DNA of 63,216 bases, the filler included, from Basidiobolus ranarum (lineage: Eukaryota), in NCBI GenBank assembly GCA_040143965.1. It is 38 parts of 38 records of this genome, joined end to end, with 100 filler letters (N's around TTAATTAATTAA, not from the genome) between each part and the next. Parts side by side here need not be neighbours in the genome. Positions count along the whole stretch, not along the records: positions 1 to 1,574 come from JASJQH010011684.1; 37 more parts are not named here. The stretch is one strand, 5' to 3'. Positions 1 through 59,055 of the stretch are shown one piece after another. The notes beneath the pieces were generated by a model. The model was not told where the DNA came from. It was given only the letters and a program-made list of their open reading frames with translations, and searched no databases. Position 1 is the first letter of the stretch. Each line of letters starts with the position of its first letter. Both the position numbers and the translations under genes were made by a program.

Positions 1-187
1 CTTTGTTACTCCCTCCCACTCCACTTAACAGTGTCTTAGATTCTACTGACTTAACTTTTCTGCTTTGCAACATTCATACAAATACTCCAGATCTCCATAC
101 ATTAGTTAAGACACTACAAAAGTAGTTATGGCTTCTTAGTTTTGTTTGAAATAAAGATTTCACCTTTTGGTGACTGTCTCCCCCTAA
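1..187 (+). mobile_element. 3' end of unclassified retroelement-like family A
   Basis: Homologous to the reverse complement of 5782-5970, 23095-23290 and 56481-56580; ORF end (...HTLVKTLQK*), AATAAAG at 150, TCACC-TTTT-GGTGA hairpin 160-173, CCCCCTAA end. Confidence 0.75.
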
Positions 188-390
188 GGATTGCATCCCC
201 CATACCCCCTGCTTTCTTTTTATACTGAGATGACTGCGTCCCGCAGACCCCTACTTTTCTTCCTTACCCTTCCTTACCCTTACCAGAACATCTATACCCT
301 ACTTTAAATTTGGCTTCTTTGTTTATTTGTGTTGTATTACTTGAGATAAATAAAGATTACACCCTGTGGTGCTTTTCATCTCCCCTAACC
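188..390 (+). mobile_element. 3' end of unclassified retroelement-like family B, stacked directly on A
   Basis: Last ~80 bp match the reverse complement of 6084-6165; AATAAAG, CACC-CTGT-GGTG, ends CCCCTAACC. Confidence 0.7.
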
Positions 391-1373: not shown

Positions 1374-1574
1374 TGTTAAAGTATTTGGGAGCCTGTTGGA
1401 AGTGGTTTGGAGAATTAGAGGAATTGGTAGTTTTCACTTATTGATTTATTGAGTAGAAAGTTAACATTTATAGTTTTGTCAAGATGTAAACAAACTAACA
1501 TGTAGAATATGTTAAGGAAGGTCCCAGGAACATGTGTGCAAAGTTTGGGGCTTCTAGCACAAGTTTGAAAAATC
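1374..1574 (-). repeat. Copia LTR type 1 (partial)
   Basis: Reverse complement of the 3' part of the LTR at 17523-17871, ending ...CAAATACTTTAACA. Confidence 0.9.
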
Positions 1575-5781: not shown

Positions 5782-6087
5782 GGTCAGGGGGCGACAGTCA
5801 CCAACAGGTGAAGTCTTTATTTCAAACAAAACAAAGAAGTCATAACTACTTTTGCAGTTTCTTAATTAAAGTGTGAAGTTCTGGAGTATTGGTGTGAATG
5901 TTGCAAAGTAGAAAACTTAATTCAGTAAAGTCTAAGACACTATTAAGTGGAGTAGGAGGGAGTAATAAAGGTAAAAATGGTGTGTCAACAATAGAAATTA
6001 GTGGAATGAGACTAGGATTAACATCAAGCATAAAGGGAGTATGTTTCTGAAGATATTGCTGCCAAAGGTCCACCAAGTATTCCTTAG
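5782..6087 (-). mobile_element. Family A element, 5'-truncated
   Basis: Carries ORF end 5846-6076 (...PPTPLNSVLDFTELSFLLCNIHTNTPELHTLIKKLQK*), hairpin TCACC-TGTT-GGTGA, end CCCCCTGACC. Confidence 0.75.
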
Positions 6088-6448
6088 GGGGGGTTGAAAA
6101 GCACCAGAATGTGTAATCTTTAATTATCTCAAGTCATACAACACAAATAAATAAAGAAGTCAAGATGAAAGTAAAAGTCAAAGGTTAATCTAACTAAGAC
6201 CTGTTTAGTGCAGCTTCCCAGACCTCTTGATATAAGATAAAAGTTTGGGGATGGAGAACCTTAGCCTGGGAAATGTAGAAGTCTTTCATAAATTTTGTAA
6301 TAAGTAGAGGGGGAATTTCTTAGAAGTGAAGTAAATCTTTTAAGTAGAGTGTCCTTTAAAGAAAAGAGAACATAAAGTGAGGTACCAGCATGTTCTTTGA
6401 AGTAATAATCAATTGGCTCCCAATCAAGCCTATCATGTACTTCATCAG
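6084..6448 (-). mobile_element. Family B element joined to the truncated 5' end of A; interrupted by LTR2
   Basis: 3' end matches 310-390; upstream ORF remnant DEVHDRLDWEPIDYYFKEHAG...; junction CCCCCCTAA|GGAATAC on the minus strand. Confidence 0.7.
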
Positions 6449-6594
6449 TGTTGAAGTTTATTGTCTTTATCATATTTGTTATCTCTATCTTTATACACCT
6501 AACTATTTCATATATCACATATAAGTTAGTTAACATTACTTAGTCAAATATCACTTGGCTGAAAATTGGAACATATATTATATATATATGTGAA
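6449..6594 (+). repeat. Copia LTR type 2 (5' part)
   Basis: Starts TGTTGAAGTTTATTGTC; reverse complement of 8740-8885. Confidence 0.9.
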
Positions 6595-7895
6595 NNNNNN
6601 NNNNNNNNNNNNNNNNNNNNNNNNNNNNNNNNNNNNNNTTAATTAATTAANNNNNNNNNNNNNNNNNNNNNNNNNNNNNNNNNNNNNNNNNNNNTAGGAT
6701 ATTAATGAGCTCAAAAGATTTTCCGACTATTTTTTTTTCACCAACTTTTTCCGAAATCGGTACTATAAAAGAGACGGGTTTGCATCAATGAAAAATTACG
6801 ACTGTACTTTACAGGATTATGTATATAGTACATTCCCAGTCTTTGTTTCCCAACAAAGACACTAATACCAAGCTGGTGGATGAGTAGTAGTGCGCTGTCC
6901 GTAAAGGGAAGTGTGGAATTGACTCGTTTGGTTCTTCGGAACCTCTGAGTATTTCCAGTTGATGATCTTGCCGGTTGATTATTCCAACAACCAGGCGAGG
7001 ACGGTTTGCACATTCTGACAGCTAGTAATTCTCTTAATATCAAAAAACAATTTTCAAATCAATTGAGACATACAAATATATCCTTTCAAAATACGCTATA
7101 TTTTTCAGTTTAACAATTACTGCTTCCACTGCGAAAGATTATTCTCTAGCTGGACTTGGATTCAACAACTTCTCCTTGTCGAGGTGCAACGCTCCACTAT
7201 AACCCCACCAAAAAGATCAGGCTTGGTTAATACTTTACGCCAAAACTTTCTTGCTTGTTGAAACTCGCATCATTCAAATTTTCATGGTTTTTAGTATCGG
7301 AAACAAAAACTGGATATTGCTGCTTTTTCGGATTAAAGAACGAATATCAAGTAAAGCTGATACAATTAGTAAGGCGGATGACTAATTAAAGTTAATACCA
7401 AAATTGTCAGTACCGACTGTCAAAATGACTCGTGCTACGTTGATTCAAGTATGTTACTCGAAAGGTGCTCACAGGAATGGCACAACTTCACGTAGAGACT
7501 ATCTTCATTGTCAATGTGACCCTCGTTATTAGATATATATGTACGGCGAATTTGCTTAATGTTTAAGATTATGGGATTGCATTGTACAAGTATGCTTATG
7601 TGAGAGATCTGACAGTAGATCAGGCTTTGTAAATATAAATTATCTCGATAGAAAGTAAAGAAATATTTGATTATTGTTATTCATTGAAGCATTCATTAAA
7701 TGCTCAATTACGTTATCTGATTGGTGTCCTATGCCATCGCATTTGGAATAGACTAGTGCCATTTTAGCGCGTTTGTTCTGCCTAATCATTGTTTAGACGA
7801 AGTTAACACTATTGTTGACCATTACATGGTTTATTTTTTAATGAGTGATATTAATGAATATATACTAATTATATAATGTATTGCTAATCCTATCT

Positions 7896-8367: not shown

Positions 8368-8885
8368 CCCTATCCTCCAGCATGATTTGCATTTTGAACT
8401 TCCAGAAATTGTAATTTTCTCCATCAAGCTTTTCAACACTTGAGTTAATAAAAGTGGTAGTAGTGGTTTCTGTCATGCTGTAAAGGTTAGAACACGGGGC
8501 TCATAACCTATTGGGAAAAAATGGGCTATTTGGAGGAACTTTAGAAAAGTGGAGTAGTGCGTAGCTTTGTGATATAATTGTTTATTATCCAGAAATAAAG
8601 CATTTATACTTTTTGGTGGAAAAGCAGAAAACTAACACTGGGGTTATATTCAAAACATCTGTGTGAGTAAAATGAGCTATCTTTGGGGCAATTGGGACAA
8701 GTTTGAAATTTTCAATATGGAATTGCCAATTCTCACATTATTCACATATATATATAATATATGTTCCAATTTTCAGCTAAGTGATATTTGACTTAGTAAT
8801 GTTAACTAACCTTTAAGTGATCTATGAGATAGTTAGGTGTACAAACATAGAGATAACAAATAAGATAAGACAATAAACTTCAACA
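8368..8885 (-). mobile_element. 5' end of a copia element: LTR2 (8509-8885), PBS (8497-8508), gag start
   Basis: LTR TGTTG...CCAATA directly followed by GGTTATGAGCCC, then MTETTTTTFINSSVEKLDGENYNFWKFKMQIMLEDR (copia gag N-terminal motif). Confidence 0.92.
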
Positions 8886-13382: not shown

Positions 13383-14555
13383 CAGTTTGATTATTGAGGA
13401 GTGGCGAGTTCAATCCAATCTTAGCAACCAGGTGTTTATTGGTTTTCTTAAACTTTTACCACAGTTGATTGCCAACTGTTGCTTGCCACAGGCCTGGTAC
13501 AAGTGGAAAACACTTGTCAATTGTATGACTGATAATCCTTCAGCAATTAAACTACCTTTATGTCCAAATGGTTGTTTGGCTTTCACCAGTGATCTGAAAA
13601 AACTGAAGCCATGTACTGTTTGCGCCCAATTGGCAATCACTGAATGAGGTAATCATCTTTCATATTTGGCTTATGTACCATTGATTTGCCATCTTAAAGT
13701 TTTGATGAAATCACCCAAATATAGATCATTGATCCAATACCAAAGTACTCACTGTAAAGCCCATGGTATTACAGATATACTTGATGGATATCACTACCAG
13801 AATCTGAAAAGTCAATATTTCTTTGAGAACATGTATGATCATACACTTGCATTGGCTCTGGATGGTTTCTCATTAAACAAATATACTGTTGAAAAGTCTT
13901 GCTGGCCAATAATTTTAATGAACTTAAATCTTTCTCCTTCTGAATGGTATAAGAGTCATAATATTTTGTACTATGCATCATATCTGGACCTAAATCATCA
14001 GTACTTATAGATAGCTTCTTGGAGCCTTTGATTGCAGAATTTGGATTGTTATCTAATGGGGTTCAGATGGGTGAATATTTTATTAAAGCCAATATCATTG
14101 TATGTATTGGCAACCCTCCTGCCATCAGTAAACTTGGAGGTTTTTGCAGGCTGAATGCACTATGTTGCTGAAGATTTTGTCAAATCAATGGATTTTACTC
14201 TATCAGGCATATGCATTACTACTATCCAAATACAACACTAAACTCCTTGATTTTACCATCAAGAGCCCGGTCAGATTCCAACATGATCACTGATATCAAT
14301 TCGCCAAATAGTCAGTCTAACATCAAACTTGGTATTAGCTGTAAGCCTAAGATTATATTGCTAAAGGGGATCAGCTGAAGCCAGAGCTTTCCATTAGGCA
14401 CTACACACTTACTATTCAACAACATTCCAATACTACTTACTCAGCTATATAGTGGAAAATTCAGTATGAATGAGCCATTCAAGATAGGATCAAAGTTTGA
14501 ATCAATTGGGAAAATGCTTGAAAACGTCAAGATAATATCATATTTTACCAGGACC
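13383..14555 (+). mobile_element. CACTA/EnSpm (CMC; Tnp2/Transposase_21-like) transposase, central part, degenerate
   Basis: CPNGCLAF...CTVC, YVPL, ITDILDG, ALALDGF, SCWPIILMNLNL, GPK, DSFLEPL motifs; start overlaps the end of contig 24 and continues into 56681. Confidence 0.88.
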
Positions 14556-15053: not shown

Positions 15054-16336
15054 CTCCCAAATACTTTAACAGGTTATGAGCCCCAAGCTTGGACTCTCTG
15101 TAATGTCTACTTCTCAAATTTATGGAACTTTTCCTTCTTCTGAAAAATTGGATGGAACCAATTATCAATTGGGCCTATGCCTGCACAGCTCAAATACATG
15201 AACCCCAGACTGTAAAAGAGGCCCTGAATGGCCCTCACACGAAATTTTGGAGATCTGCAATGGCTGATGAGTACCAGGCTTTGATTGATAATCAAACTTG
15301 GATTTTAACCAACTTACCTGATGATAGAAAATCAATTGGCTGCCGATGGGTGTTTAAAGTTAAATACAACTCTGATGGCAATATAGAAAGGTACAAGGCT
15401 AGACTAGTAGCCAAAGGCTATTCCCAAACACCAGGAATAGATTATACAGAAACTTTTGCTCCTGTAGCAAAGTTTAATTCAATTAGATTGATTTTAGCAA
15501 TTTCAGCTAAATATCAGTTTATTATACATCAAATGGATGTTAAAACTGCCTTTTTGAATGGTGAGCTTGCTGAGGAGATCTATATGGACCAGCCAGATGG
15601 ATTTGTGGACCCAGAAAACCCTAAAAAAGTTTGCAGACTCCGGAAAACACTCTATGGCTTAAAACAATCTCCAAGAGCTTGGAATAGCAAGATAGACGCT
15701 TTTTTAGAAACACTCAAATTCCAAAAGAGTAATGCTGACTATAGTATCTACTTCAGGCCAGATAAGACAAACTCAGCTTTATTAGCCTTATATGTAGATG
15801 ATCTTATTATAGCAACCAGTGACTTGAAGACTTTGGAGAAGACCAAATCCAGCTTATCTGCCAAATTCAATATGACTGATCTTGGTGAACTGACATACTA
15901 TCTTGGAATCCAAATTAGGATAGATAGAACTACCAAAACAGTAACTTTAAACCAGTCTAAGTATATCCTGGATATACTAAAGAAGTTCAAAATGGAAGAA
16001 TGTAATCCAGTATCTACCCCAATGGAGACAAATCTTAACTTGACCAAAAATGGCTCAGATCAGACATTCTTGGATTCAAATGAAAGCCAAAAATAGCCTT
16101 ATCAACATATGGTTGGTAGTTTGATGTATATCATGGTTGGAACATGGCCAGATATTGCATATTCTGTGGGAGTTATGTGCCAATATCATCAAAATTATGC
16201 ATCTGATCAAATCATAGCAGTTAAGTGGATTTTCAGATATTTGAAAGGTACAGTGGATCTATGCTTAAAATACACATATTCAGGATCAAACTTTGATCTG
16301 ATGGGATATTCAGATGCAAATTGGGGAAGAGATATT
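15054..16336 (+). mobile_element. Internally deleted copia: LTR1 end, PBS (15072-15083), ~22 gag codons fused to a near-intact RT
   Basis: Gag start [22 protein letters not shown] joins WAYACTAQ... at ~15168; ORF 15122-16096 has [29 protein letters not shown]. Confidence 0.93.
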
Positions 16337-17522: not shown

Positions 17523-18294
17523 TGTTGAAATTAGCAGTTTCGAAGCACCTATATAGTCATATATAGCTTAGTACTTAGTTATCTTATTTTTCACCAGGAC
17601 ATCATCCATTACTGTCAATTGGAATTTACTTAGAATATTTTTACCAACTTTGAAATTCTGCAATATATAGATTTTTTCAAATTTTTGCTAGAAGCCCCAA
17701 ACTTGGCATACATGTTCCTGGGACCTTCCATAACACATTGTACATGTTGTTTTGCTTACATCTTGACAAAACTATGAATGTCAACTTTCTAACCAATAAA
17801 TCAATAAGTGAAAACCATCAATTCCTGTATTTCTCCAAACCACCTCCAACAGGCTCCCAAATACCTTAGCAGGTTATGAGCCCTAAGCTTGCACTCTTGG
17901 TAATATCAATGTCTCACATTTATGGAACCTTTCCCCCTTCTGAACAATTGGATGGAGCCAATTATCAAGTTTGGAAAATAAAAATGAAAATGCGGCTGCA
18001 AGAAAAAGGACTTTGGGACACTGTTGTAGGAGAAGAAAACAATGCAAAACTATCTGAAAGCAAAATTTTACTCCAAGTTAAAAAAGAACAAAGTGCCTTC
18101 AACAAAATTTTTTGTCTTAATGTTAAAGACAAATTGCTAATTCAATGTTCAAGAGCTAAAACTGCCAAGAAGGTATGGAAAGTCTTGGAAGACACCTACC
18201 AAACAAGTTCTGCTACCAACAAGATGTTTCTGAGAAGACAATTCTTTAACTTAAAGATGAAGCCAGGAGAAGATATTCAATCACTAATTAATAG
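17523..18294 (+). mobile_element. 5' end of a copia element: full LTR1 (17523-17871), PBS (17872-17883), open gag
   Basis: ORF from 17876: LDGANYQVWKIKMKMRL...GLW...TAKKVWKVLE...LRRQFFNLKM. Confidence 0.95.
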
Positions 18295-18394: not shown

Positions 18395-19964
18395 GGTGTT
18401 CTCCAAAGTCTTCAAGTCATTGGTTGCTATAATAAGATCATCTACATATAAGGCTAATAAAACTGGGTTTGTCTTATCTGGCCTGAAGTAGATACTATAG
18501 TCAGCATTACTCTTTTGGAATTTGAGTGTTTCCAAAAAAGCGTCTATCTTGCTATTCCAAGCTCTTGGAGATTGTTTTAAGCCATAGAGTGTTTTCCAGA
18601 GTCTGCAAGCTTTTTTAGGGTCTTCTGGGTCCAGCAATCCATCTGGCTGGTCCATATAGATCTCCTCAGCAAGCTCACCATTCAAAAAGGCAGTTTTAAC
18701 ATCCATTTGATGTATAATAAACTGATATTTAGCTGAAATTGCTAAAATCAATCTAATTGAATTAAACTTTGCTACAGGAGCAAAAGTTTCTGTATAATCT
18801 ATTCCTGGTGTTTGGGAATAGCCTTTGGCTACTAGTCTAGCCTTGTACCTTTCTATATTGCCATCAGAGTTGTATTTAACTTTAAACACCCATCGGCAGC
18901 CAATTGATTTTCTATCATCAGGTAAGTTGGTTAAAATCCAAGTTTGATTATCAATCAAAGCCTGGTACTCATCAGCCATTGCAGATCTCCAAAATTTCAT
19001 GTGAGGGCCATTCAGGGCCTCTTTTACAGTCTGGGGTTCATGTATTTGAGCTGTGCAGGCATAGGCCCAATTTTGGGACTCATTAATATAGTAATCAGGG
19101 CTATTTCTGATCCAATTTGATCTCCTGGTTTGGGATAAAGGTACTACAACTTCTGGCATTGTATTGGGCACTTCAGTAGGCAAAATTTTGGTTGAAGGGT
19201 CCACAGGAATGCTATTTTCTTCATTGTTTTGGTTTGAATCAATTTGAATGATTGGATCAGGAGAAAATTGATTTTTGTCATCATCTGAGGTCATTTTGGG
19301 TGAAAATTTTTCATTTTCATTAAACAAAACATCCCTGGACTTGATTAACTTGGAAATTTTGGTATCATAGAGTCTGTAGGCCTTAGTTTGAGTACAATAA
19401 CCCAGAAATATGCATTTCTTACTTTTTGGATCAAATTTAGACTGATTTTTGGTCATAATTTTGACATAAGCAATGCATCCAAAGATCCTCAAATGTTTTA
19501 CATCAGGTTTAACTCCAAACCAAGCTTGATATGGTGTAGAGTTAGACAGACTACTAGTAAAACTCCTATTCTTCAGATATACAGCTGTAGCAACAGATTC
19601 CGCCCAAAAGTTATGAGATAAATTTTGTGCATTTATCATAGATCTTGCCATTTCTATTATAGTCCTGTTAGCTCTTTCAGCAACTCCATTTTGTTGAGGT
19701 GAATAGGGGGCAGTAGTTTCTTGCTTAATTCCATGAACTTTGCAAAAGTGCTTAAATAGTGTTGAAGTATATTCTCCACCATTATCAGTATGTATTTTCT
19801 TGATTTTAGTTCCAGTTTCAGTCTCCACAAGTGTTTTAAATCTCTAAAGATAGAGAGAGCTTCTTCTTTTCTTTCCATAAAGTAGACCCAAGTGTATCTT
19901 GTATAATCATCAATAAATGTGATTAAATATCTTTTCCACCTAAAGATAAATTTTGCATAGGTCC
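18395..19964 (-). mobile_element. Young, nearly intact copia pol (integrase and RT)
   Basis: [33 protein letters not shown]; ~480 open codons with one frameshift near 19840. Confidence 0.97.
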
Positions 19965-20064: not shown

Positions 20065-21633
20065 TATCAATATCATCAGCGGATTCTGAGATGGCATCAC
20101 AGATGAGTCATCAGGGAATTTACCAGATATATCCGGTAATTGATGGCAATTTTGGTTTATTACAACCTGTTTCTAAGCAATTTCATTATACCAAGCTTAC
20201 CATCCCAAAATTTCAATGCCGGTCAAAAAGCATTCAAAATCCAAGTCAAAATTGGCTTCCAAGCCACAGCTTGCTGGCACAAAAGGAAAAAAACCAGTTA
20301 GAACAGAGGACTTAATTGATGAGCAGTATAGCAATCCACTATCCCCTTTGGAAGGCATTAACATGTGGAAAGTAACTCTAGTAATGATGAAGCACTAATT
20401 AATATAACAGTTGTGTTTGTTTCTGGCAATAGTGCAAGTGAAGAGATTGTAATCACCCAATTACATAGTAAGTCAATAGTTGAGCAATGTTCAACAAAAA
20501 CACTGTCAAGACCATCAGCTTCCAAAATGGTTTCTTTGCCCACTATTGAAGAACTGTCCATGGTAAATTTGGATACAGTTATTACAACAAGGGAATTACA
20601 GGCAGAGCACTGTAATTATTTGCATGTAATCTTAAGTAAAAACTATGATGTTGCTATGCTGGCTATGACAAGGATTAATGCCACAATATTGCAACTAATG
20701 CAGCAATTGGAAGCAACTAGTCAACAGTTAAAAGTCACTCAACAATGATACAAGATCTTCAGAGTGCTATACTTGAGCTATAGCAACATGCTGCTCCCTC
20801 CATCCATTCTCATATGGGATTTCAATCAATCACACATCATACATATGAATGGCACCTTTACAATCTAGCAGAGCAGAATATGTGTTGGACCATTAAGCCT
20901 ACACAACAACCCAAAATTGCTTGAGCACGCAAAAGTAGAAATCTTATAGGAAAACCGGCAAACCAAAAGACTCTGAATATCAGAGCTGCATCACTTGCTC
21001 TAATGATGAGTGGTTTAACATATTGGAAACTGTACGGAATCTTGCCCAAAATCACCAGGATTTGAGCCAATTGTGGAAAAACCAAAAACCAAGCATTACT
21101 CTGAAGGTTCTTGACTTATTTTATATTGCTTACGCTGGGCTTTTGCAAGCAAATGGCAATTGGGCTAGTATAGGCCTATTCAAGAAACTTCTCAAACATG
21201 TACACAATCATTGACTTGGAAAAGAAAGAAAAGCAGCTAAAGAAGTACTGAAGAAGCAGGAAGTTAGTAAACTCAAGGGAAAAGCAAAGGAGCCAGTAAG
21301 TTTAGACTCTACCGTCCAAGTTACCAAATTCTTCACACCATTACAAAGATCTGCACTTCCTGAGTCAGATATACTGGCAAAAAAGCTTAATTTTACCATA
21401 GAATTGGGAACACCAGTTAGAAGAGTGCTCAATTTGGAAGTTTATCCAACACTTGGCACCAGTCAACAAGACAAAACACCAGTAAATAATGCTCATGGCT
21501 CTCCAACCTCAACTGGTACTTGTCAAAGTGTTGAAATTAGTCCCAAAGGTAAAGGCAAGCAAAAAGCCACACAAACACCACAAAGCACCCTCAGTAGTGT
21601 CACACTACAAGGACATACAAAAATAGTCAAAGA
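20065..21633 (+). mobile_element. CACTA-like element ORF2 region, degenerate
   Basis: MPVKKHSKSKSK...coiled coil...LSQLWKNQKP...GNWASIG; homologous to 40066-41160, which is linked to the transposase start in contigs 24, 25 and 32. Confidence 0.8.
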
Positions 21634-21733: not shown

Positions 21734-22760
21734 AGTTTACCATTGGAATATTTCATTACCATACAAAAAGCGCTTAAATTCTTGGTCAAAATTGGATTCC
21801 AAGACAAAGCCAGCTGGCACAAAAGGAAAAAAACCAGCAAGAACAGAGGACTTAATTGATGAGCAGTCTAGCAATCTACTATCCACTTTGGAAGGCATTA
21901 ACTTGCTCGAAACTAGCTCAGCAATGAAGAAGCAGTACCCAATTTACTAGATGTGTTCCTTTCCAGTGCTAGGGCAGGTGAAGAGATTGTTATCCCCCAA
22001 ATGCGTAGTATATCAATAGTTGAGCAAAGTTCAACCAAAACACCATTAAGACCATCAACTTCCAAAATGTCTACTTTACCCACTATTAAACAACCCTCTG
22101 CAGAAAATTTGGATAGAACTATTACTACAAATAATCTCAGGCAGAACACTGCAATAATGGTATGCAGTGATATGTAAAAACTACAAAGTTGCTCTACAGG
22201 CCATGACAAGCAACAATGCCGCAATATCAGAATAAATGCAGCATTTGGAACCAGCTAGTCAACAGTTATAAAGTCACTCAACATTGATACAAGACCTTCA
22301 GAGTGCCGTACTTGAGCCACAGCAACATGCTGCTCCCTTCACCCATTTTCATACAGGAATTCAATCAATCCCACACCGTACATATGAACTTCACTGTGAC
22401 AATCTAGCAGAGCAGAATATGTGTTGCACCATCAAACCTACACAATGGACTTGTTCTCTGTGATAGTGCCAGGTTGTGCTATATATATCATATTGGATAA
22501 AGTATTAAAAAATTGATGTGGCACAATTTGGCACTATCCATCACCCTCTACCATGATCATTTCAATCACATTTACTCTAATGCATTGATCCAAGGTCCAA
22601 CAAATCCTGGCACACTGGAACCAGTCCAATGACCTGAAATTGCTTGGGCACATGAAAGTAGAAATCTCTTAGGAGAAACAGCAAACCAAAAGTCTCAGAA
22701 TGACAGAGCTGCCAACACTTGCTCTGATGATGAGTGGTTTAACATTTTGGAAACAGATAT
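21734..22760 (+). mobile_element. CACTA-like ORF2 copy carrying a MITE insertion
   Basis: Aligns with 20195-21030. Confidence 0.8.
22448..22626. mobile_element. ~180-bp MITE, copy 1
   Basis: TIR GACTTGTTC...GAACCAGTC, flanked by CAATG on both sides; absent from other ORF2 copies; inverted match to 23671-23850. Confidence 0.88.
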
Positions 22761-22818
22761 CAAACTTGGTTTGGAGTTAAGCCTGATGTAAAGCATTTGA
22801 GAATCTTTGGATGCATTG

Positions 22819-23096
22819 GGTTAGGGGGGATGAAAAGCACCAGATGGTGTGGACTTTATTTAGCTTAAATACTAATCTAAACAAAGCAACAATCAAGGCA
22901 TCAATCTTTTAAGATATTGTGACAATACCAGATCATATCCATACTTAACCTGATGACCAATGTAATCAAGCTCAGAGAATGTAAATATAGTGTTAAGGGG
23001 CAAAGGTGGTAAGCAGAAAGGAAGGTACTCAGTGCAAAACAGATGGACAATAGGACAAAAACCTGGAATAACGGGAATTAAGAGAGGTGTCTTAGG
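22819..23096 (-). mobile_element. Family C retroelement-like 3' end joined to a copia integrase fragment
   Basis: ORF end ...LPPLPLNTIFTFSELDYI...YLKRLMP* (similar to family A LPPTPLNSVLDFTELSFL); AATAAAG, CACC-ATCT-GGTG, CCCCCCTAACC. Confidence 0.72.
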
Positions 23097-30074: not shown

Positions 30075-31640
30075 AAACCGCCTGCCGATATGAATGTTGG
30101 ATGCAGTGATCAACTTGCCCCCCATCTTATCAATTATAATCCGGGTCAAGGTTAAAGAGCGCCCTTTCATTTCAAATTGACCACCTATTGAGCCATTTGC
30201 TTGAGCTAATGGGTCGAAGTCAATCTCAAGGTATTGCGAGGGAACTAATCGATTGGGACATTCGATCAAGTATTTGATTGTAACATAGCCGTCAACATCG
30301 GAAACAGTGGTCATTTTCAGAGTGATTTCAGCTTCAGCATTCTGTTCTTCGAAGATAGGTGAATCCAGGATTAAATATCCCAACCGATGAATCACTGACT
30401 GAAGTCTAGACGAGTCACACAGTATCTTCACATCACCCAGGCCTTCAATAATAGTATTGATGTGATAGTTTCTTCCTTCAATGGAGGTGAAACTACATTT
30501 GAGAAGGGTCAGCAGATAATCCAAGTCAATACATTTTTCCTTGAGGACTAAGTCGTTATTCTTCAGATTAGCCAAATCCAACACCTCGTTAACAAGCTCA
30601 CTTAAGAACTTGGCTGAACTCAGAATATTTTCTAGTTCCTCTGACGAGTGAGAGATCTCTTTCTGCTCCATTAATAGTCTAGCGTATCCACTGATGGCAT
30701 GAACTGGGTTTCGAATTTCGTGACACAGATATAACAAAATGTCTCCTTTGGATTTGTTGGCTATTTCGGCGTCCTTCTTGGCATTCCATAAATCGATCGC
30801 CGCTTGCTTTTTGGTGGAAATATCTCGAAATGTGACTACTTGGGCATAATTCGACCCGACAACTGTTTGAGCACTGAAATTTGCTTCGGCGTAAAACTGA
30901 GTTCCATCCTTACAGGTGATAGTAACTTCTCGCATTCCTGGTTCAATCACCACAGAGGACAGATCATTTGGCTCCCGCGCTATGCTGATCACATTCCTTA
31001 CAAAAAGGTCTACCGAGCTGTTGATGTCTCTGGAGGTATATCCAGTCCGAGTCAATGCGTAGGTGTTTGCACCGGTGATCCTTCCCTCACGATCGAACAG
31101 AATAAGTGGGTCTGTGATGGACATCAGGATGGCCTTGCTGTTTGTGGCCATGTTTTTTACCAAAGCGTTGGAATTTTGCAACATCATGTGCCCCAAAGAG
31201 GCCTGTTTTCTTGCTTTAAAATACCTCTTGGTGAATACAAAGAGCAACATCGTCGAGAAGGTGATACAAATGATGATCGCAAGTAGTAAGAAAAGTTGTG
31301 TACTGGTGGTGAGAAGATCTGCCTTATGCGCGTAACACTGTATTTGCCACTCACGATCGGCAAAATTCAAATTAGTGGTAATCCCATCTAGTGGAAATGC
31401 ATTGGCATCCTCATGACCATCAGTATATAGTATAGTATCACTCCCTGATTTATCTATTATACGTATATGATTATCCTCTGAAGTATCAATGAAAGAGACA
31501 ACCGATGCGAGAAGTGATTCCATTCCGACCGTGATACCTATCAGGCCGCTTATGTTTCTATATATACTGTGCTCCGCATTAATTGGAGGATTTCCTGCGT
31601 TAGGTTTTGCTTCGACAGACGAGGAATTTGATTTTTTTAC
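30075..31640 (-). CDS. Membrane sensor histidine kinase-like protein: CHASE-like end, TM helix, PAS, HisKA, degenerate HATPase (both ends missing)
   Basis: Frame open across the whole contig; GLIGITVGMESLL...LNFADREWQIQCY, hydrophobic helix, DPLILFDREGRITGAN...TGYT...FRDIS (PAS), ANKSK...LCHEIRNPVHAISG (H box). Confidence 0.92.
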
Positions 31641-31740: not shown

Positions 31741-32481
31741 GGTAACAATGGTGGAAACAACGCAGGAACTGTCGCCACTTGCCCCGATATTGTAGCCAAG
31801 GTCAAACTTCTCGGTATTCAAGTCGATGCAAATGTGTGTTTGAGCGGTGGGAACAATGGACCCAACGCTCCTCCCCTCTCTGGTGGAAGTAGCTGCCCAG
31901 ATATTGTTGCCGATGCCAACTTACTCGGCATCAAGGTCAACGCTCAAGTTTGCTTAGGTGGTGGAAGCGGTAATGGTGGCAATGGAGGAAACAACAGCGG
32001 TAACAACGGAGGAAATGGAGCCACTTGCCCCGATATTGTAGCCAAGGTCAAACTTCTCGGTATTCAAGTCGACGCCAACGTATGCTTGAGTGGTGGAAAC
32101 AATGGACCCAACGCTCCTCCTCTCTCCGGTGGAAGTAGCTGCCCAGATATTGTCGCTGACGCCAATTTACTCGGTATCAAGATCAATGCTAGTGTTTGCC
32201 TAGGCGGTGGTAACTCTGGAAACCCAGCTGGAAACAATGGTGGCAATAACGGTACCCCTTCATCTCCTGGATGTCCCGACATTACTGCTCGCCTCGTTGC
32301 TGGAGGAATTCGTGCCAATGCCTTCGTTTGTTTGAGTGGTGGGGAGGCTCCAAACACAGGATCCAATGTACCTACCGGAGGCAATTCTCGTATGTGTAAT
32401 GGTATTAGAGCACGTATTAACGCTCTTGGAATCCAAGTCAGAGCTGTTGTCTGCCTTCCACGCATTGAAATTAGGATTTAG
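31741..32481 (+). CDS. Repeat protein with six Cys-bounded hydrophobic modules and G/N-rich linkers (5' end missing)
   Basis: Frame open from the contig edge; modules such as CPDIVAKVKLLGIQVDANVCL and CPDIVADANLLGIKVNAQVCL; repeats differ mostly at synonymous sites; AATAAA downstream. Confidence 0.9.
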   Translation, partial: GNNGGNNAGTVATCPDIVAKVKLLGIQVDANVCLSGGNNGPNAPPLSGGSSCPDIVADANLLGIKVNAQVCLGGGSGNGGNGGNNSGNNGGNGATCPDIVAKVKLLGIQVDANVCLSGGNNGPNAPPLSGGSSCPDIVADANLLGIKINASVCLGGGNSGNPAGNNGGNNGTPSSPGCPDITARLVAGGIRANAFVCLSGGEAPNTGSNVPTGGNSRMCNGIRARINALGIQVRAVVCLPRIEIRI

Positions 32482-35072: not shown

Positions 35073-36637
35073 AGTATTTTAAAGTATCTAAGGATAGGGT
35101 GAGATTCATTTTTTCTTTCCAAAAAGTAGAACAAGGTGTATCTTGTATAATCATAAATAAAAGTGATTAAATATTTTTTCTTTTTAAAGAAAAATTTTGC
35201 CTAGGTTCACACAAACCTGAATGAATAAGATCCAATTTTTTGACAAATCTGATTAAGCCAGAGCACTTGAATAGTTTCCTGGCTTAGTTTCTATAAAAAT
35301 AACCCTCACAAATTTCCATTATGGTTGGAGGGTTGATTTGAATACCAGAAATTAGGCAATTTTTGATAATTTTGCTCAAAAAAGCAAATCTAATATGGCT
35401 AAATCTCATATGCCATAATTGAATAGTTTCTTGATTAGAATATCTTATATTGGCACATAATCCTCTTGGATTATATGTACATTTTTATAGATTCCAATCC
35501 ACATCTCCTGAAGCTATATAATTCCCATTTTGATCTGTGGTGATGCATCTTGACTAATCAAAAAAGAATTTTAGCCCTTCTGAAGTAACCTTGTATACAG
35601 ATATTAAGTTCTTGCAATATCTGGAACATGTTGCACATCCTTAAAAGTATATACTTTCTCTTTGGAAGCTTGTTTTAAATTTACTTGAAGTGGTTCCATT
35701 CCAATTGCATCTGATATGGTCATCTCCCATGAAAACCTTTCTTGGGATTTCTTCATGATCCATAAACCAATAATTTTCATTTGTGAAATGTTGGGGGGCT
35801 CAAGAATAGTATACCACACTGGAAAATCCTTGTTGGTAGTCATAGATAGAGCAGATGTGAATAAGTGAACATCTGTTGTAACCACATTTCTAGATTTCAT
35901 GTGTTTTTCTTCTCTTGCAATTCTTTTAAAGCAATCTTTGCTTACATGGCCAGTTCTTTTACAGTAATTGCAAAATGTGAGATGTCTCTTCTTGAAGTGC
36001 TTTGACCTTTAGAAGATGGTTTCCCATAGCCTATTAAAGCATTTTATGCATTCTTTTGTTTGGATCCTAATGTACATAAATCCCATCCAGAAGTCTACCA
36101 AATAAATAGTTTAGAAGCAAATTTTCAGTTGAAGATTCTAGAGCCATTACTAGGCCCTGAAACTTGTGCAGCAGGCTATTCAGGACTGCAACTATGAAGC
36201 TTGATTAGTAGTGGGAACTTCAATGCATACTGCTTCATCCACCAAAATAGCATTGCTATTAATTAGTGAATTAAGGTATTCTCCTGGCTGCATCTTTAAG
36301 TTAAAGAACTGTCTTGTTAGAAACATCTTCTTGATGGCAGAACATGTTTAGTGGCTGTCTTCTAAGGCTTTCCATGCCTTCTTAGCAGTTTAGCCCTTGA
36401 ACATTGAATTGGCAATTTGTCTTTAACATTCAGACAAATTGTGTTGAAGGCACATTGTTCTTTTTTAACCCAGAGTAAAACTTTGGTTTTAAATATTTTG
36501 CAAACTTGATAAATGGATCTATCCAATTCATCAGAAGAGGGAAAAGTTCCATAAATTTGAGAAGTAGACATTGCAGAGAGTGCAACCCTGGGGCTCATAA
36601 CCTGTTAAAGTAGTTGGGAGCCTGTTGGAAGTGGTTT
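35073..36637 (-). mobile_element. Degenerate copia 5' region: LTR1 end (36603-36637), PBS (36591-36602), gag, protease, pre-integrase
   Basis: GGTTATGAGCCC adjacent to the LTR; CCHC knuckle CNYCKRTGHVSKDC; colinear with 61740-63216. Confidence 0.93.
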
Positions 36638-40065: not shown

Positions 40066-41629
40066 CCTACACGCACACGCTCCTTTTCTGTTCCCATGGG
40101 TTTACTAACTTCCTGCTCCTTCAGTACTTCTTTAGCTGCTTTTCTTTCTTTTCCAAGTCAATAAATGCGTACATTTTTGAGATGTTTCATGAATAGGCCT
40201 ATACTAGCCCAATTGCCATTTGCTTCCAAAAACCCAGGATAAGCCACATGAAATAAGTCAATAATCCACAGAGTAATGCCTGGTTTTTGTTTTTTCCACA
40301 ATTGACTCAAATCCAGGTGATTTTGGGCAGGATTCCGCACAGTTTCCAAAATATTAAACCACCTATCATTGGAGCAAGTGATGGCAGCTCTAACATTCAT
40401 ACTCTTTTGGTTTGCTGGTTTTCCTATGAGATTTCTACTTTTGTGTGCCCAATCAATTTTGGGCCATTGTGTAGGCTTAATGGTCCAACACATATTCTGC
40501 TCTGCTAGATTGTCACCGTGATGTTCATATGTATGTTGTGGGATTGACTGAAATCCCATATGAGAATGGATGGAGGATGCAGCATGTTGCTGTATCCCAA
40601 GTAAGCATTATGAAGGTCTTGTATCATTGTTGAGTGACTCTCTAACTGTTGACCAGTTGCTTCCAAATGCTGCATTAATTGCAATATTGCGGCATTATTG
40701 CTTGTCATGGCCTGTATAGCAACTTCAAAGTTTTTTCTTATGATTGCATACAAATCATTATTGTGTTCTGCCTGCAATTCCCTAATTGTAATAATTCTAT
40801 CCAAGTTTTCTACGGAGGGTTGTTCAATAGTGGGCAAAGTAGCCATTTTGGAAGGTGATGGTCTTGATGGTGGTTTGGTTGAACTTTGCTCAACTTTTGA
40901 TTTACTACTTAATTGGGGGATTCCAATCTCTTCACTTGCACTATTGCTGGAAAGGAACAGATCTGGTAAATTAATTAATGCTTCATCATTACTTGAGTTA
41001 GTTTCTGGCATGTTAATGCTTTCCAAAGTGGATAGTGGATTGCTAGACTGTTCATCAGTTAAGTCCTCTGTTCTTACTTGTTTTTTTCCTTTTGGGCCAG
41101 CAGGCTTTGGCTTGGAAGCCAATTTTGACTTAGATTTGAGTGCCTTTTGAATGGCATTGTAACTTTCAGATGGTAAACTTGGTGTAATGAAATTGCTTAG
41201 AAACAGCTTATGATAAACCAAAATTGTCATCCATTATTGGAAATATCTTGTAAATCCCCTGATGACTCATCTGTGACACTGTCTCAGAATCTGCTGATGA
41301 TATTGAAGGGCTATACCTAAAATACCACCCATACATGGGAGGTGTTCTTTTTTCTACAATATCCTTCTGATGCCAAAACACAAACGTTTAACAAAGCCCT
41401 GCTATTATTGTTGCAACTTCTTGTGCTATGAAAGCCAGAGGCTTCATAGAAAAAATAATCACAAGCATGGTCACTATACAAAGCCACCAGCTGCACAAAG
41501 CCTGGTGTGTAACAACAATAATAAGTGCACTAAATTGACTTTAGTTTTGCCTATTGAGTCCACTGACTGTAGTTTGCCTCAAAGTTTTGGTAACACTGCC
41601 AAAAGTCAAGATACCATGGAGTTACCACA
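40066..41629. mobile_element. CACTA-like element core, best-preserved ORF2 (minus) and transposase start (41370, plus)
   Basis: ORFs 40505-41230 and 40158-40559 are one frameshifted gene; same layout as 38402-39965. Confidence 0.85.
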
Positions 41630-50041: not shown

Positions 50042-50806
50042 CAACTCAATCTCATTAACCCCAAGACCTTAGAAGTTGTTCGCAACCTTTTGAAGGAAAC
50101 TACCAAGTGGTTTGATGAAGAACTCTTCCATATCGGTGGTGATGAAGTCAACATGAAATGTTGGGAAACTTCTCCTGGCTATCCTGAATACCTTGAGAAG
50201 CACAACACTACCTTGGATGCTCTATTTGCCAACTTCATCCACCAAGATCATAAGTATATCAGAGAGAATAAGAAGACCCCCGTTACCTGGCAGGGAGCTC
50301 TCCTTACTCAAAATGTTACCATGGACAAGGATGTTGTTGTCCAAACATGGCTCGGAAACTCTGCTACCGTTGCCGCTGTCCGTTTAGGTCATCGTGTTAT
50401 TGCCTCCAACTACGAGCACATGTACTTGGATTGTGGACACGGTGCTTGGATTGGATCTAGTCTTGGTAACTCCTGGTGCGATCCTTACAAGTCATGGCAA
50501 GTAATCTACAATTACGATCTCACAGCCAACATGACTGAGAGTGAAGCCAAGCTTGTTATTGGTGGTGAGACCGCCATGTGGGGAGAACAAGTTGATGGTG
50601 TTAACTTTGACTCTCGTGTATGGCCCCGTGCTTCATCCTCTGCTGAAGTTCTCTGGAGCGGCAACAAGCTTACCAACGGAACCATCAGACCCACTGCTGA
50701 TGTTTCCCCCAGAATTAATGAGATGCGGGCTCGTCTTGTTGATCGCGGAATTGGTGCTTCTACTCTCCAACCTCTCTGGTGTCAACGTTTCCCTGGCATG
50801 TGCTAG
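50042..50806 (+). CDS. Beta-N-acetylhexosaminidase (GH20), C-terminal catalytic half
   Basis: FHIGGDEV catalytic motif, YLDCGHG, WCDPYKSWQ, IGGETAMWGE, VWPRAS, PLWC; strong codon bias. Confidence 0.96.
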   Translation, partial: QLNLINPKTLEVVRNLLKETTKWFDEELFHIGGDEVNMKCWETSPGYPEYLEKHNTTLDALFANFIHQDHKYIRENKKTPVTWQGALLTQNVTMDKDVVVQTWLGNSATVAAVRLGHRVIASNYEHMYLDCGHGAWIGSSLGNSWCDPYKSWQVIYNYDLTANMTESEAKLVIGGETAMWGEQVDGVNFDSRVWPRASSSAEVLWSGNKLTNGTIRPTADVSPRINEMRARLVDRGIGASTLQPLWCQRFPGMC

Positions 50807-51374: not shown

Positions 51375-51490
51375 TAGGCTTTGGGGGGGATGACAAGTAT
51401 CAGTTGGGGTATACTTTGCTGAGCTTACATGCTATAGTAAACAAAGTGGCATTTGGGATATCAATCCTCTAAGATATTGTGACACTATAT
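51375..51490 (-). mobile_element. Old, diverged family C 3' end
   Basis: GGGGGGGATGACAAG...AAACAAAG...ATCAATCCTCTAAGATATTGTGACA aligns with 22824-22925. Confidence 0.6.
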
Positions 51491-51491
51491 G

Positions 51492-51601
51492 TGTTAAAGT
51501 ATTTGGGAGCCTGTTGGAAGTGGTTTGGAGAATTAGAGGAATTGGTGGTTTTCACTTATTGAGTTGACATTTATAGTTTTGTCAAGATGTAAACAAACTA
51601 A
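51492..51601 (-). repeat. Copia LTR type 1 (partial)
   Basis: TGTTAAAGTATTTGGGAGCCTGTTGG... as at 1374. Confidence 0.9.
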
Positions 51602-56337: not shown

Positions 56338-56480
56338 TGTTAAAGCATTTTGGAGCCTGTTGGAAGTGGTTTAGAGAATTAGTAAAATTGGTGGTTTTCA
56401 CTTATTGATGTATTGAGCAGAAAGTTGACCTGTATAGTTTTGTCAAGATGAAACCAGACTAACATCTAGAATATGTTAAG
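56338..56480 (-). repeat. Copia LTR1 fragment truncated by a family A element
   Basis: Matches 1374-1517 and stops at ...AATATGTTAAG. Confidence 0.88.
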
Positions 56481-56580
56481 GGTTAGGGGGAGACAGTCAC
56501 CAACAGGTGAAATCTTTATTTCAAACAAAACAAAGAAGCCATAACTACTTTTGTAGTTTCCTAACTAATGTATGGAGATC
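56481..56580 (-). mobile_element. Family A 3' end
   Basis: Plus strand GGTTAGGGGGAGACAGTCACCAACAGGTGAAATCTTTATT... Confidence 0.78.
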
Positions 56581-56680: not shown

Positions 56681-58239
56681 ATTTGAACAGTTATCTAATG
56701 GGGTTCAGATGGGTGAATATTTTATTAAAGCTAATATCATTGTATGTATTGGTGACACTCCTGCCATCAGTAAACTTGGAGGTTTTTGCGGGCACAATGC
56801 ACTATCTTGCTGTAGATTTTGTCAAATCAATGGAGTTTACTCTAACAGGCATACACATTACTACTATCCAAATACAACACTAAACTTCATGATTTTACCA
56901 TCAAGAGCCTGGTCAGATTTCAATATGATCACTGATATCAATTCACCAAATAGTCTGTCTAACATCAAACTTGATATTAGCCATAAGCCTGAGATTTTAT
57001 TGCTAAAGGGGATCAGCTGGAGCCAGAGCTTCCCATTAGGCATTATGCACTTACTATTCAACAGCATTCCAATACTACTTACTCAGCTATATAGTGGAAA
57101 ATTCAATATGAATCAGCCATTCAAGATAGGATCAAAGTTTGAATTGATTGGGAAAATGCTTGAAAACGTCAAGATACCATCATATTTTACCCAGACTCCC
57201 ATCAATATCCACTCATCTAGGCATTTATTCAAATGCAAAGACTGGAAGTATTGGATTTGTATATATTCAAGTGGAATTTTGAAAAGATTTCTGCCTGATA
57301 AGTATTGGCAACATTGGGAGTTGTTTGTGGATATTGTTAATATATTCTTATGGCATCAACTCACATTGGCAGATCTCAGGCAGATACAGCAGCTGTGCAA
57401 AGATTTTGTAATTGGATATGAAGAACTATATTACAGGTTTAAAGAAGATAGACTGAATCTATGCAGATATTCAATACATTCCCTGCTGCATCATTCACAA
57501 TGCTTAGAGATTATAGGCCCTTGCTATACATTCTGGCAGTTCCCAAAGGAGTGCACCTGCGGTGAAATGATGCTCTGTGTAAAATTGTCAGCATTGCCAT
57601 ATGCTAATCAGATTAACAATGTATCAGCAAAATCAGTGATGGATGTAATACAATGGGTTAAGGAGACTCCAGAGTATATTACCCTGCCAACAAAGGGCTC
57701 TTTTCAATGTGCTCATGGATTCTTGCATTGTTTGAGCACAATAACAGAAACAAAGCCCAATCCATGGACACAGAGTAAGTACCTTTATAATTGGACTAAT
57801 TTACTTGTTTAATAATCTGATGGTATTCTTAGGAAAGCTGCAAGACAGACTTCTTGGTAAGATAGATGGGGATATGGGGTGTTATTATTTTAGCCATGGG
57901 GTGATCTATTTAAGCACTGACACATCTACTTGTGGCAGAACATTTGTTAACTGCAAGTTGTGGATATATTGGCTGAATTCTTTATGGAAATTTGCCAAAA
58001 TTGTAGGGCTTATTCTCATTGTGAATGGCAACAAGAGTCAGCTATTTGCCAAGTGTCAGTGCTATTGAAAATTTCAGATATTTAGCAACTTTTCCACCGT
58101 TAGTTTGCTGGTAAAGCATATTGATGTTGTTGAGTTATGTCTAATCAGTCAAACATGTGCATATGTAGAGACTAAACACAACAAGATTCTTGTATTTTTT
58201 GATTCTCATTATGGCTGGAATACAAAGCCTAAAATATCT
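56681..58239 (+). mobile_element. Best-preserved CACTA/EnSpm-type transposase copy (ORF 56709-57812 plus downstream frames)
   Basis: GDTPAISKLGGFCGHNALSCCRFC, MHLLF, FKCKDWKYW, FVIGYEELYY, IHSLLH, GPCYTFWQFPKECTCG. Confidence 0.92.
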
Positions 58240-58983: not shown

Positions 58984-59055
58984 TGCCTACTGCCGGGATT
59001 GAACTGGCGACCTTCAGTTTACGAGACTGACGCGCTACCACTGCGCTAAGCAGGC
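58984..59055 (-). tRNA. tRNA-Thr(CGT)
   Basis: GCCTGCTTAGCGCAGTGGTAGCGCGTCAGTCTCGTAAACTGAAGGTCGCCAGTTCAATCCCGGCAGTAGGCA; cloverleaf with anticodon CGT, one A-C mismatch in the T stem, T5 terminator immediately downstream. Confidence 0.93.

Follow-up and report, generated by a model that had tools for sequence, protein, structure and literature searches.

What are the short repeated sequences, each closing on a C-rich tail that resembles a single telomere unit, that recur in a 63,216-base stretch of DNA from the fungus Basidiobolus ranarum? The stretch, referred to throughout as the window, consists of 38 contigs of 1559-1574 bp (not of five), separated by spacers of the form N44-TTAATTAATTAA-N44. 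An all-against-all BLAST of the window reveals that most contigs are mosaics of repeats, and Ty1/copia gag, integrase and reverse transcriptase (RT) sequences are found in several of them. An earlier note on this DNA had described the repeated sequences as eight element ends and had read them as a telomere-primed, terminal retroelement system. They are very probably the tails of ordinary endonuclease-bearing retrotransposons of the LINE (long interspersed nuclear element) type, together with those of shorter elements that have the same tail. A telomere-primed element system, as an account of what they are, mostly fails, although the short telomere-like tail is nonetheless unusual.

The observation from which the note started holds, and its interpretation as a whole is partly supported. 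All eight ends are present at the positions it gave, six with an intact motif and two decayed, as it had said, and the hairpin loops TTTT, TGTT, CTGT and ATCT can be read directly from the sequence. No poly(A) tail, long terminal repeat (LTR) or terminal inverted repeat belongs to these ends, which are 3′-intact and 5′-truncated retroelement ends, sometimes placed head to tail; their hairpin is conserved, and their C-rich tail looks like a single telomere unit. The pattern AATAAAG-N(0-12)-CACC-N4-GGTG has six exact matches in the window (150+, 349+, 5821-, 22860-, 23136- and 56520-) against 0.01 expected, a number reached by 0 of 100 shuffles, and the same pattern followed by N8-12-CCCTAA has four matches against 0.00 expected. 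The decayed B end in contig 4 has ATTAAAG and CACA..GGTG in place of the motif, and the decayed copy at 51375-51490 has lost both AATAAAG and the hairpin.

Coding sequence and shared 3′ module of the element ends

The ends belong to four element types, termed A, B, B′ and C, of which A and C can be connected to a protein family. Among 66 candidates, the last 79 codons of A (P0001) match one longer protein, P0004 (664 aa, 81% identity, E 3e-33), which contains an RVT_1 domain at 208-420 (E 1.6e-24); the motifs YRPISLL and FADD are visible in the sequence. A search with P0004 returned 756 proteins at E<=1e-3 among 8000 scored, including six close relatives, P0005-P0010 (50-74% identity), after which identity falls to 35% or less. 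The full-length relatives of A are 821-923 aa long, P0005 being the longest at 923 aa. In P0005, P0006, P0007 and P0010 Pfam places N-terminal Exo_endo_phos or Exo_endo_phos_2 matches ahead of RVT_1, and all four have a conserved C-terminus ending ..LVKKLQ. G125-D126-x-N128 and D171 are invariant within an alignment of nine sequences, as are S200/H202 from the SDH motif. Downstream of the RT, Pfam found no domain in P0005-P0010, where the REL motif was not searched by pattern, and the relatives have no Pfam match to RNase H or zf-RVT, which together with the Exo_endo_phos_2 matches may offer only hints of a clade.

Comparison with solved structures leads to the same protein class. The family profile gives one unbroken alignment to the endonuclease and RT of human L1 ORF2p (E 4.5e-52), its closest solved structure, with the endonuclease alignment starting at residue 73. 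Further matches in the Protein Data Bank (PDB) are to R2 proteins and to group II and retron RTs, the TRAS1 endonuclease is matched weakly (E 3.8e-3), and telomerase is absent from the profile's 20 PDB matches. Endonuclease-RT proteins can be superposed on residues 4-852 of P0005 in its Atlas model (TM 0.67). The last 66 codons of C align to the same C-terminus as those of A, being closest to P0010 and 39% identical to A over 44 residues. Since A and C share the ORF2 C-terminus of endonuclease-RT proteins (ORF, open reading frame), they are very probably the 3′ ends of two subfamilies of a non-LTR retrotransposon of the apurinic/apyrimidinic (AP)-endonuclease type, that is, of a LINE.

The evidence for endonuclease and RT comes from the full-length relatives rather than from the elements in the window, and it bears on several claims of the earlier note. 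A Penelope-like element (PLE) or telomerase-like group, as the note had supposed, does not agree with the LINE-type RT of the nearest relatives or with the PDB matches, and the comparison with endonuclease-deficient PLEs does not survive the finding that the nearest full-length relatives join an N-terminal AP-endonuclease to a LINE RT. Full-length copies encoding an AP-endonuclease LINE with target-site duplications had been named in the note as evidence that would speak against it; the relatives are of exactly this kind, save for the duplications. Its statement that the window contains no RT is correct for these elements, as tblastn of the window with eight LINE proteins found only the A C-termini, but not for the window overall, where copia RTs (RVT_2) lie at 15104-16096 and 18395-19843 (E 1.6e-86 and 9.1e-66). 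With regard to the diagnostic features it had proposed to look for, the AP-endonuclease is found in the relatives, no GIY-YIG domain is reported in the Pfam results for P0005-P0010, and no hammerhead was found: over the whole window Rfam at gathering scores returned only a U3 and one tRNA, and in contig 1 even a threshold of E<=1 brought up no hammerhead.

A, B, B′ and C differ upstream, and the 3′ 60-90 nt are common to all of them by BLAST and alignment. This is the feature expected of a stringent LINE, a conserved 3′ tail shared by the LINE (A, C) and other elements (B, B′). The module proper comprises 60-80 nt, with two predicted stem-loops followed by a C-run-TAA(CC) tail. In predicted stem-loop 1, CUUUGUUU.. 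pairs with ..AAAUAAAG, so that the AAUAAA signal is located inside the stem, whose length is 10, 13 and 11 bp in A, B′ and C, respectively. Predicted stem-loop 2 is (U)CACC-N4-GGUG(A), with 4-5 bp, and the single-stranded tail after it ends C(4-7)UAA(CC). The end of the tail falls 26-32 nt past AAUAAA, the usual spacing for a cleavage signal. The unit of C-run and TAA is present once in seven copies and twice in one, and this terminal unit, which resembles the C strand of TTAGGG, is conserved across the four element types, whereas the preceding 7-10 nt differ. The two-stem fold is predicted in six of the eight copies, and in the alignable columns 92.5% of 80 cells pair, a share that drops to 36-48% once the partners are slid. 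Compared by eye, the families are not alike in the distal pairs of stem 1 (U-G in A, A-U in B′ and C; U-A in B′, G-C in C).

The B and B′ elements carry this module without the LINE protein. The B ORF is unrelated to ORF2, and an exhaustive search yielded four matches, among them P0244 (73% identity, E 8.5e-14), P0246 (269 aa) and P0247 (173 aa). It matches no Pfam family, has no solved relative by sequence (best E 0.11) and shows no likeness to 120 LINE proteins. Its model runs from a long helix at the N-terminus through a disordered middle to a helical C-terminal part, and in the Atlas it resembles hypothetical proteins that early-diverging fungi have in multiple copies. To call it an ORF1-type protein, on the strength of this architecture and of the multi-copy look-alike clusters, is only a guess. 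From their sequences, B (a different ORF with the LINE tail) and B′ (non-coding sequence with the LINE tail) are most probably elements without ORF2 that have the same 3′ module.

Several points weigh against the LINE reading or limit how far it reaches. Endonuclease and RT are known only from relatives that are 62-64% identical to P0004 (50% for P0010), and the Pfam endonuclease matches of P0005-P0007 are below the curated cut-offs, which only P0010 reaches. P0004 itself starts inside the linker, so that the endonuclease could have been lost from A's own lineage. This genome has shown no full-length copy, nor any copy with both ends inside one 1.57-kb contig. The B ORF is without a recognised family and its AlphaFold model is poor (predicted local distance difference test, pLDDT, 50.6). 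Individual fold z-scores are modest, at -1.86 to -2.71 in five intact copies and -0.7 to -0.9 in three mutated ones. None of the 10 alignable pairs shows two-sided covariation, and the observed score is attained in 437 of 500 shuffles; pairing is kept, both sides never change in any one pair, and covariation therefore gives no proof of a structure that is conserved in sequence.

Sequences outside the fungus were also searched with the LINE alignment. Relatives are encoded by 512 of 586 candidate stretches in the genome_contigs collection, and the best 80 are only 24-35% identical; these are distant LINEs on metagenome-bin contigs and uninformative on the tail. None of 25 candidates from viral contigs was confirmed, and a scan of JGI metagenome contigs with the DNA pattern of the tail module gave only three loci (GC 45-64%), alike in pattern alone, which amounts to chance. 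As an observation apart from the present family, L004-L083 are RTs of AP-endonuclease LINEs (24-35% identity) located on contigs of bacterial or archaeal metagenome-assembled genomes, of which there are hundreds, and such LINE RTs in bacterial or archaeal bins are most likely host or eukaryote DNA binned by mistake.

By analogy with systems such as eel UnaL2, the best-supported mechanism that can be inferred is that of a stringent LINE with partner elements. The ORF2 protein would recognise the stem-loops of its own RNA and of partner RNAs, and its AP-endonuclease would nick the target. Reverse transcription would then start in the C-run/UAA(CC) at the end, of which 1-3 nt would pair with the nicked strand; the 5′ truncations would follow from incomplete copying, and no poly(A) would be copied.

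Junctions, insertion targets and the origin of the chains

The same-orientation joins in three contigs described by the earlier note are real: A is joined head to tail to B′ at 187/188, B to A at 6088/6087 and A to C at 23096/23095 (a slash marks the junction here and below), the upstream 3′ end meeting an internal point of the downstream element in each case. A fourth join connects A to a 5′-cut copia LTR at 56483/56481. The three young A copies are 96% identical to each other and 88% identical to the contig 4 copy by BLAST, and young A copies are the upstream member in three of three joins. That new copies insert into the tails of old ones was considered and is disfavoured by this order. The downstream A and C pieces start with a Lys codon, AAG, which makes a 2-3 nt overlap with the terminal TAA possible.

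For two ends the window also contains an uninterrupted paralogue of the target. C lies in a copia pol gene, where the empty site GACATAAG/CAATGCATCC corresponds to the filled ..CCCCCCTAACC/CAATGCATCC, and the A copy of contig 34 lies in a copia LTR, designated D, where the empty site GGGACCTTC/CTTAACATATTC corresponds to the filled ..CCCCCTAAC/CCTTAACAT. Both ends thus mark interstitial insertions; neither target is telomeric, and each picks up again on the 3′ side. No telomere-like array was found in the window by hexamer count or by TRF: the CCCTAA/TTAGGG hexamers number 19, none of them in tandem, six being element tails, and the total is close to what base composition predicts (by our own estimate roughly 11 per strand). 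Both observations speak against a terminal, telomere-primed system, as the note had proposed. Three of the four non-LINE flanks (contigs 1, 4 and 34) begin CC(C)TTA, which in contig 34 is native to the target LTR, and the sequences suggest that the C-rich tail may pair with a short complementary primer (..TAAGG-3′ or ..TTA-3′) at internal nicks.

How the chains arose is a question apart from the identity of the elements. The likeliest origin, held at a little under an even chance, is that young A copies inserted into older 3′ fragments of related elements and into copia sequences within a repeat-dense region. This nested insertion is a poor fit for four observations. The LINE-to-LINE joins all have the same orientation (3/3), and the downstream pieces are all short (203, 277 and 302 bp). 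Tails abutting another LINE end in CCCTAA/G (3/3), whereas those abutting other DNA end in TAACC or TGACC (4/4; Fisher p=0.029). Finally, P0008 of Basidiobolus meristosporus, which consists of three tandem copies of the last ~140 residues, repeats one identical truncation point three times. P0008 and P0009, the latter a three-piece chain, are annotated as hypothetical proteins of strain CBS 931.73 and are read-throughs of truncated LINE copies joined head to tail. All four observations fit template jumps, in which the RT stops a few hundred nucleotides in and switches to the 3′ end of a second tail-bearing RNA; such jumps would leave the identity of the elements unchanged and alter only the origin of the chains. 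They would account for the three shared orientations and for the shortness of the downstream pieces; the CCCTAA tail, shorter where it stands at an internal join, would show where the RNA truly ends, and the Lys AAG with which the downstream A and C pieces begin would permit 2-3 nt of pairing with the terminal UAA. A precedent is documented for the Magnaporthe element MGL, with recurrent switching sites and chimeras that contain 3′ LINE fragments of 230-5461 nt (PMC2104539). We nevertheless regard template jumping, though the main alternative to nested insertion, as less likely than not, given that there are only three joins and no chain seen whole with flanking duplications, that the repeated truncation in P0008 is equally explicable as a tandem duplication by unequal crossing-over, and that the A-to-LTR join of contig 34 and the C-to-pol join look alike upstream, yet cannot be jumps from RNA to RNA.

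Re-use of preferred sites is an improbable alternative to nested insertion. Here the endonuclease or the priming step would favour a telomere-like motif (CCTTA/TAAGG, CCCTAA), building arrays as TRAS and SART or microsatellite-specific LINEs do, next to existing tails and perhaps in true telomere repeats too. The CC(C)TTA flanks noted above, including the native CCTTA of contig 34, speak for it, as do the tail of one telomere-like unit and the copy with two. The copia pol target (GACATAAG/CAATGC) is without the motif on its right, neither empty site is a telomere repeat, no telomere array occurs in 60 kb, and the newest copy should be found beside the flank, whereas the young A copies are upstream in the chains. 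Very little credence is left for the model of the earlier note, in which PLE-like or telomerase-like elements without an endonuclease build terminal arrays by priming on the G-rich ends of chromosomes. Polar chains, the lack of poly(A) and a C-rich tail complementary to TTAGGG speak for it; the LINE-type RT and AP-endonuclease of the relatives, the lack of telomerase among the PDB matches, of GIY-YIG and of hammerheads, and the two interstitial insertions speak against it. It is just as improbable that the joins are chimeras of a fragmented short-read assembly. Contigs of ~1.57 kb that are rich in repeats and often end inside A would invite such errors, but the joins fall exactly at element termini, their partners share at most about 8 nt, three different joins follow the same logic, and the same chains appear in gene models of an independent Basidiobolus genome. 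The least credible proposal, which is rejected, is that these are Helitron 3′ ends, a hairpin followed by CTRR, for a small hairpin does lie ~11 nt before CTAA; the ORF2 C-terminus and stop codon of a LINE stand directly upstream, however, no RepHel is present, and the base after CTAA is G or C in all six CTAA-ending copies rather than T.

Feature coordinates and other sequences in the window

The element ends, their targets and the associated LTRs are collected in the table.

Coordinates of the element ends, their insertion targets and associated copia sequences (stem-loops are predicted)
Feature	Position	Strand	Particulars	Evidence
Family A copy, cut by contig start	1..187	+	ORF2 C-terminus 3-122; stop 123-125; stem-loop 1 134-157 (one mismatch); AATAAAG 150-156; stem-loop 2 160-173; tail ACTGTCTCCCCCTAA 174-187	tblastn to P0004 (87% over 39 aa); sequence; fold
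Family B′ copy, non-coding, C-rich	188..390	+	5′ end abuts A tail; non-coding part 188-299; CTTCCTTACC x2.3 repeat 259-281; stem-loop 1 316-356; AATAAAG 349-355; stem-loop 2 360-371; tail CTTTTCATCTCCCCTAACC 372-390	sequence; BLAST; TRF; fold
LTR D copy with uninterrupted target site	1374..1574	-	GGGACCTTC/CTTAACATATTC	empty-site comparison
Family A copy, older subgroup	5786..6087	-	88% to contig 1 copy; last 79 ORF2 codons 6085-5849; stop 5848-5846; stem-loops 1 and 2; tail ..GCCCCCTGA(CC)	protein match; tblastn; fold
Family B copy, C-terminal part of different ORF (P0244/P0246 family)	6088..6448	-	frameshift near 6306-6313; ORF end 6197, then 106-nt 3′ untranslated region; stem-loop 1; decayed stem-loop 2; tail ..CCCCCCCTAA joined straight to A	tblastn; fold
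Copia-type LTR E, start	6449..6594	+	TGTTGAAGTTT...; inserted in B, opposite orientation	BLAST; LTR comparison
LTR D, reference copy	17523..17883	+	TGTTGAAATT...CCTTAGCA, then primer-binding-like GGTTATGAGCCC, then copia gag	sequence; domain search
Uninterrupted paralogue of pol target	19459..19480	+	GACATAAG/CAATGCATCC	empty-site comparison
Copia pol piece, 62 bp, target of C or of A-C chain	22757..22818	-	antisense to pol; 94% to 19471-19532	empty-site comparison
Family C copy	22819..23095	-	ORF2 C-terminal 66 codons 23093-22896; stop 22895-22893; stem-loops 1 and 2; tail CTTTTCATCCCCCCTAACC	sequence; protein alignment; fold
Family A copy, young subgroup, cut by contig end	23096..23302	-	96% to contig 1 copy; double tail CCCCCCTA-TCCCTAA, joined straight to C	BLAST; sequence; tblastn
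Decayed C-like end	51375..51490	-	74% to C; motif and hairpins lost; 5′ side interrupted by end of LTR D copy (51492-51601)	BLAST; sequence
Copia LTR D, last ~144 bp	56338..56482	-	5′ part missing; ends ..CTTTAACA; then decayed B′-like copy (contig 34)	BLAST
Family A copy, young subgroup, cut by contig end	56483..56580	-	tail ..CTCCCCCTAAC(C); joined to internal position of LTR D	BLAST; empty-site comparison

Two repeats that might be taken for further members of the chains were rejected. D is not a LINE-like end but a copia LTR followed by a primer-binding-like site and gag, and repeat E, which borders B on its left in contig 4, is likewise an LTR and lies in the opposite orientation. The exact ends of LTR D beside the B′-like and C-like pieces are ordinary integrase junctions. 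The sequence GGTTATGAGCCC follows copia-type LTRs D and E, which have TGTT...ACA ends, at 17872-17883 (+), 8497-8509 (-) and 36591-36602 (-); it looks complementary to the anticodon stem-loop region of an initiator tRNA-Met, as in Drosophila copia, and not to the 3′ end of a tRNA. A 27-bp tandem repeat at 1230-1373 (5.3 copies, 64% matches) ends exactly where an LTR D copy starts.

Ordinary genes are also represented. A GH20 beta-hexosaminidase gene fragment at 50042-50806 (+) lies ~570 bp from the decayed LINE end and copia LTR at 51375-51601, and the elements therefore also sit near ordinary genes; of 1843 candidate proteins, 247 match it at E<=1e-10, and Basidiobolus meristosporus CBS 931.73 supplies five of the six best (the first at 88% identity). 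A full-length U3 snoRNA gene is found at 6798-7023 (+; Rfam RF00012, 73.2 bits, E 4.7e-14) and a tRNA-Thr(CGT) gene at 58984-59055 (-). About 300 bp from the latter, a 323-bp stretch at 58377-58699 matches its own reverse complement at 74% and may be a foldback or a repeat resembling a miniature inverted-repeat transposable element (MITE). One contig, 30075-31640 (-), is spanned entirely by an ORF of 522 codons with PAS and HisKA domains, a fragment of a sensor histidine kinase gene.

Other repeats are abundant. A family of at least 1.4 kb with long ORFs occurs in six contigs (13648-14010 (+), 56682-57812 (+) and related sequence in contigs 9, 15, 23, 27, 29 and 35), its ORFs having only sub-threshold matches to Transposase_21 (tnp2, CACTA-type; E 3e-4 and 0.046). 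A second family, in contigs 13, 14, 18, 24, 25 and 32 (for example 40079-41306 and 20067-21293), has 77-87% identity over 0.7-1.3 kb, and its ORFs have no credible Pfam match. A 224-bp direct duplication (87% identity) lies at 31741-32210, within an ORF at the start of contig 20.

Relation to known retroelements

By function the family resembles the LINE/SINE pairs of the UnaL2 type (SINE, short interspersed nuclear element), and by sequence it is an AP-endonuclease LINE. PMC1636434 and PMC4176376 describe, for eel UnaL2/UnaSINE1 and zebrafish ZfL2, a conserved 3′ tail of ~60 nt that is shared with non-autonomous partners and made up of a stem-loop and a terminal sequence at which reverse transcription starts. 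The likeness is that of an AP-endonuclease LINE without poly(A) whose conserved 3′ tail is common to LINE and partners, whereas the Basidiobolus elements have two predicted stem-loops and end in a C-run and TAA(CC), usually once, in place of (TGTAA)n. Partner B, moreover, still has an ORF.

Telomere-associated elements offer further comparisons. TRAS1 and SART1, R1-clade elements of Bombyx, are likewise LINEs with an AP-endonuclease and a link to sequence of the telomere type. The insertion sites of TRAS and SART lie within (TTAGG)n arrays, and these elements have poly(A); in the window, both of the known targets belong to copia, and neither an array nor poly(A) is present. Insertion at a fixed position in telomere repeats is not seen at the two empty sites, GACATAAG/CAATGC and GGGACCTTC/CTTAAC. 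The PLEs Athena and Coprina also form polar head-to-tail chains of 5′-truncated copies with a 3′ end resembling the reverse complement of the telomere repeat, but the present elements differ in the LINE-type RT and AP-endonuclease of their relatives, in the lack of a detected hammerhead and in their interstitial insertions. PLE RTs are related to telomerase, and forms without endonuclease are restricted to termini (PMC8557442); in the window no 3′ end is joined to a telomere array, and two lie in copia sequences.

Among fungal non-LTR elements that form arrays, Cnl1 of Cryptococcus makes subtelomeric arrays of 5-80 kb (10.1101/2021.08.11.455996), and PMC12857005 assigns Cnl1, MoTeR (Magnaporthe) and FoTeR (Fusarium) to the CRE/SLACS clade, with a C-terminal restriction-like endonuclease. 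The endonuclease in the relatives of the present family is of the AP type and N-terminal. Chimeras of MGL also consist of a 3′ LINE fragment fused directly to another transcript's 3′ end; the two have a common orientation, and the switch sites recur. Their upstream partners are WEIRD RNA or Mg-SINE, and no microhomology was found (PMC2104539); in the window the partners are related LINE-tail elements, and a 2-3 nt overlap is possible.

Among the papers listed by literature searches on Basidiobolus and on telomere-like LINE tails in fungi, none describes these elements, and those listed for the Basidiobolus telomere repeat and for LINEs ending CCCTAA contained nothing relevant. It is conceivable, if improbable, that this is an AP-endonuclease LINE of early-diverging fungi whose telomere-template-like RNA end (C-run-UAACC...) pairs with G-rich 3′ ends (..TAAGG, ..TTAGGG), enabling it both to integrate internally and to extend or heal chromosome ends as head-to-tail arrays. 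Were this true, it would be a fungal counterpart of TRAS/SART or HeT-A that arose from an endonuclease-bearing LINE with dependent partner elements.

The striking claim of a new class of telomere-primed retroelement is thus replaced by a well-founded one, that of a Basidiobolus LINE family whose 3′ module would, by analogy with UnaL2-type pairs, be strictly recognised and serve dependent elements of at least two kinds. The transposons of this fungal group have hardly been described, and at least two annotated hypothetical proteins of Basidiobolus meristosporus are exposed as chained LINE fragments. The family is a small natural system in which to study the recognition, by a LINE protein, of the tail on its own RNA, and it allows one to ask whether a telomere-like terminal unit affects the site at which reverse transcription is primed.

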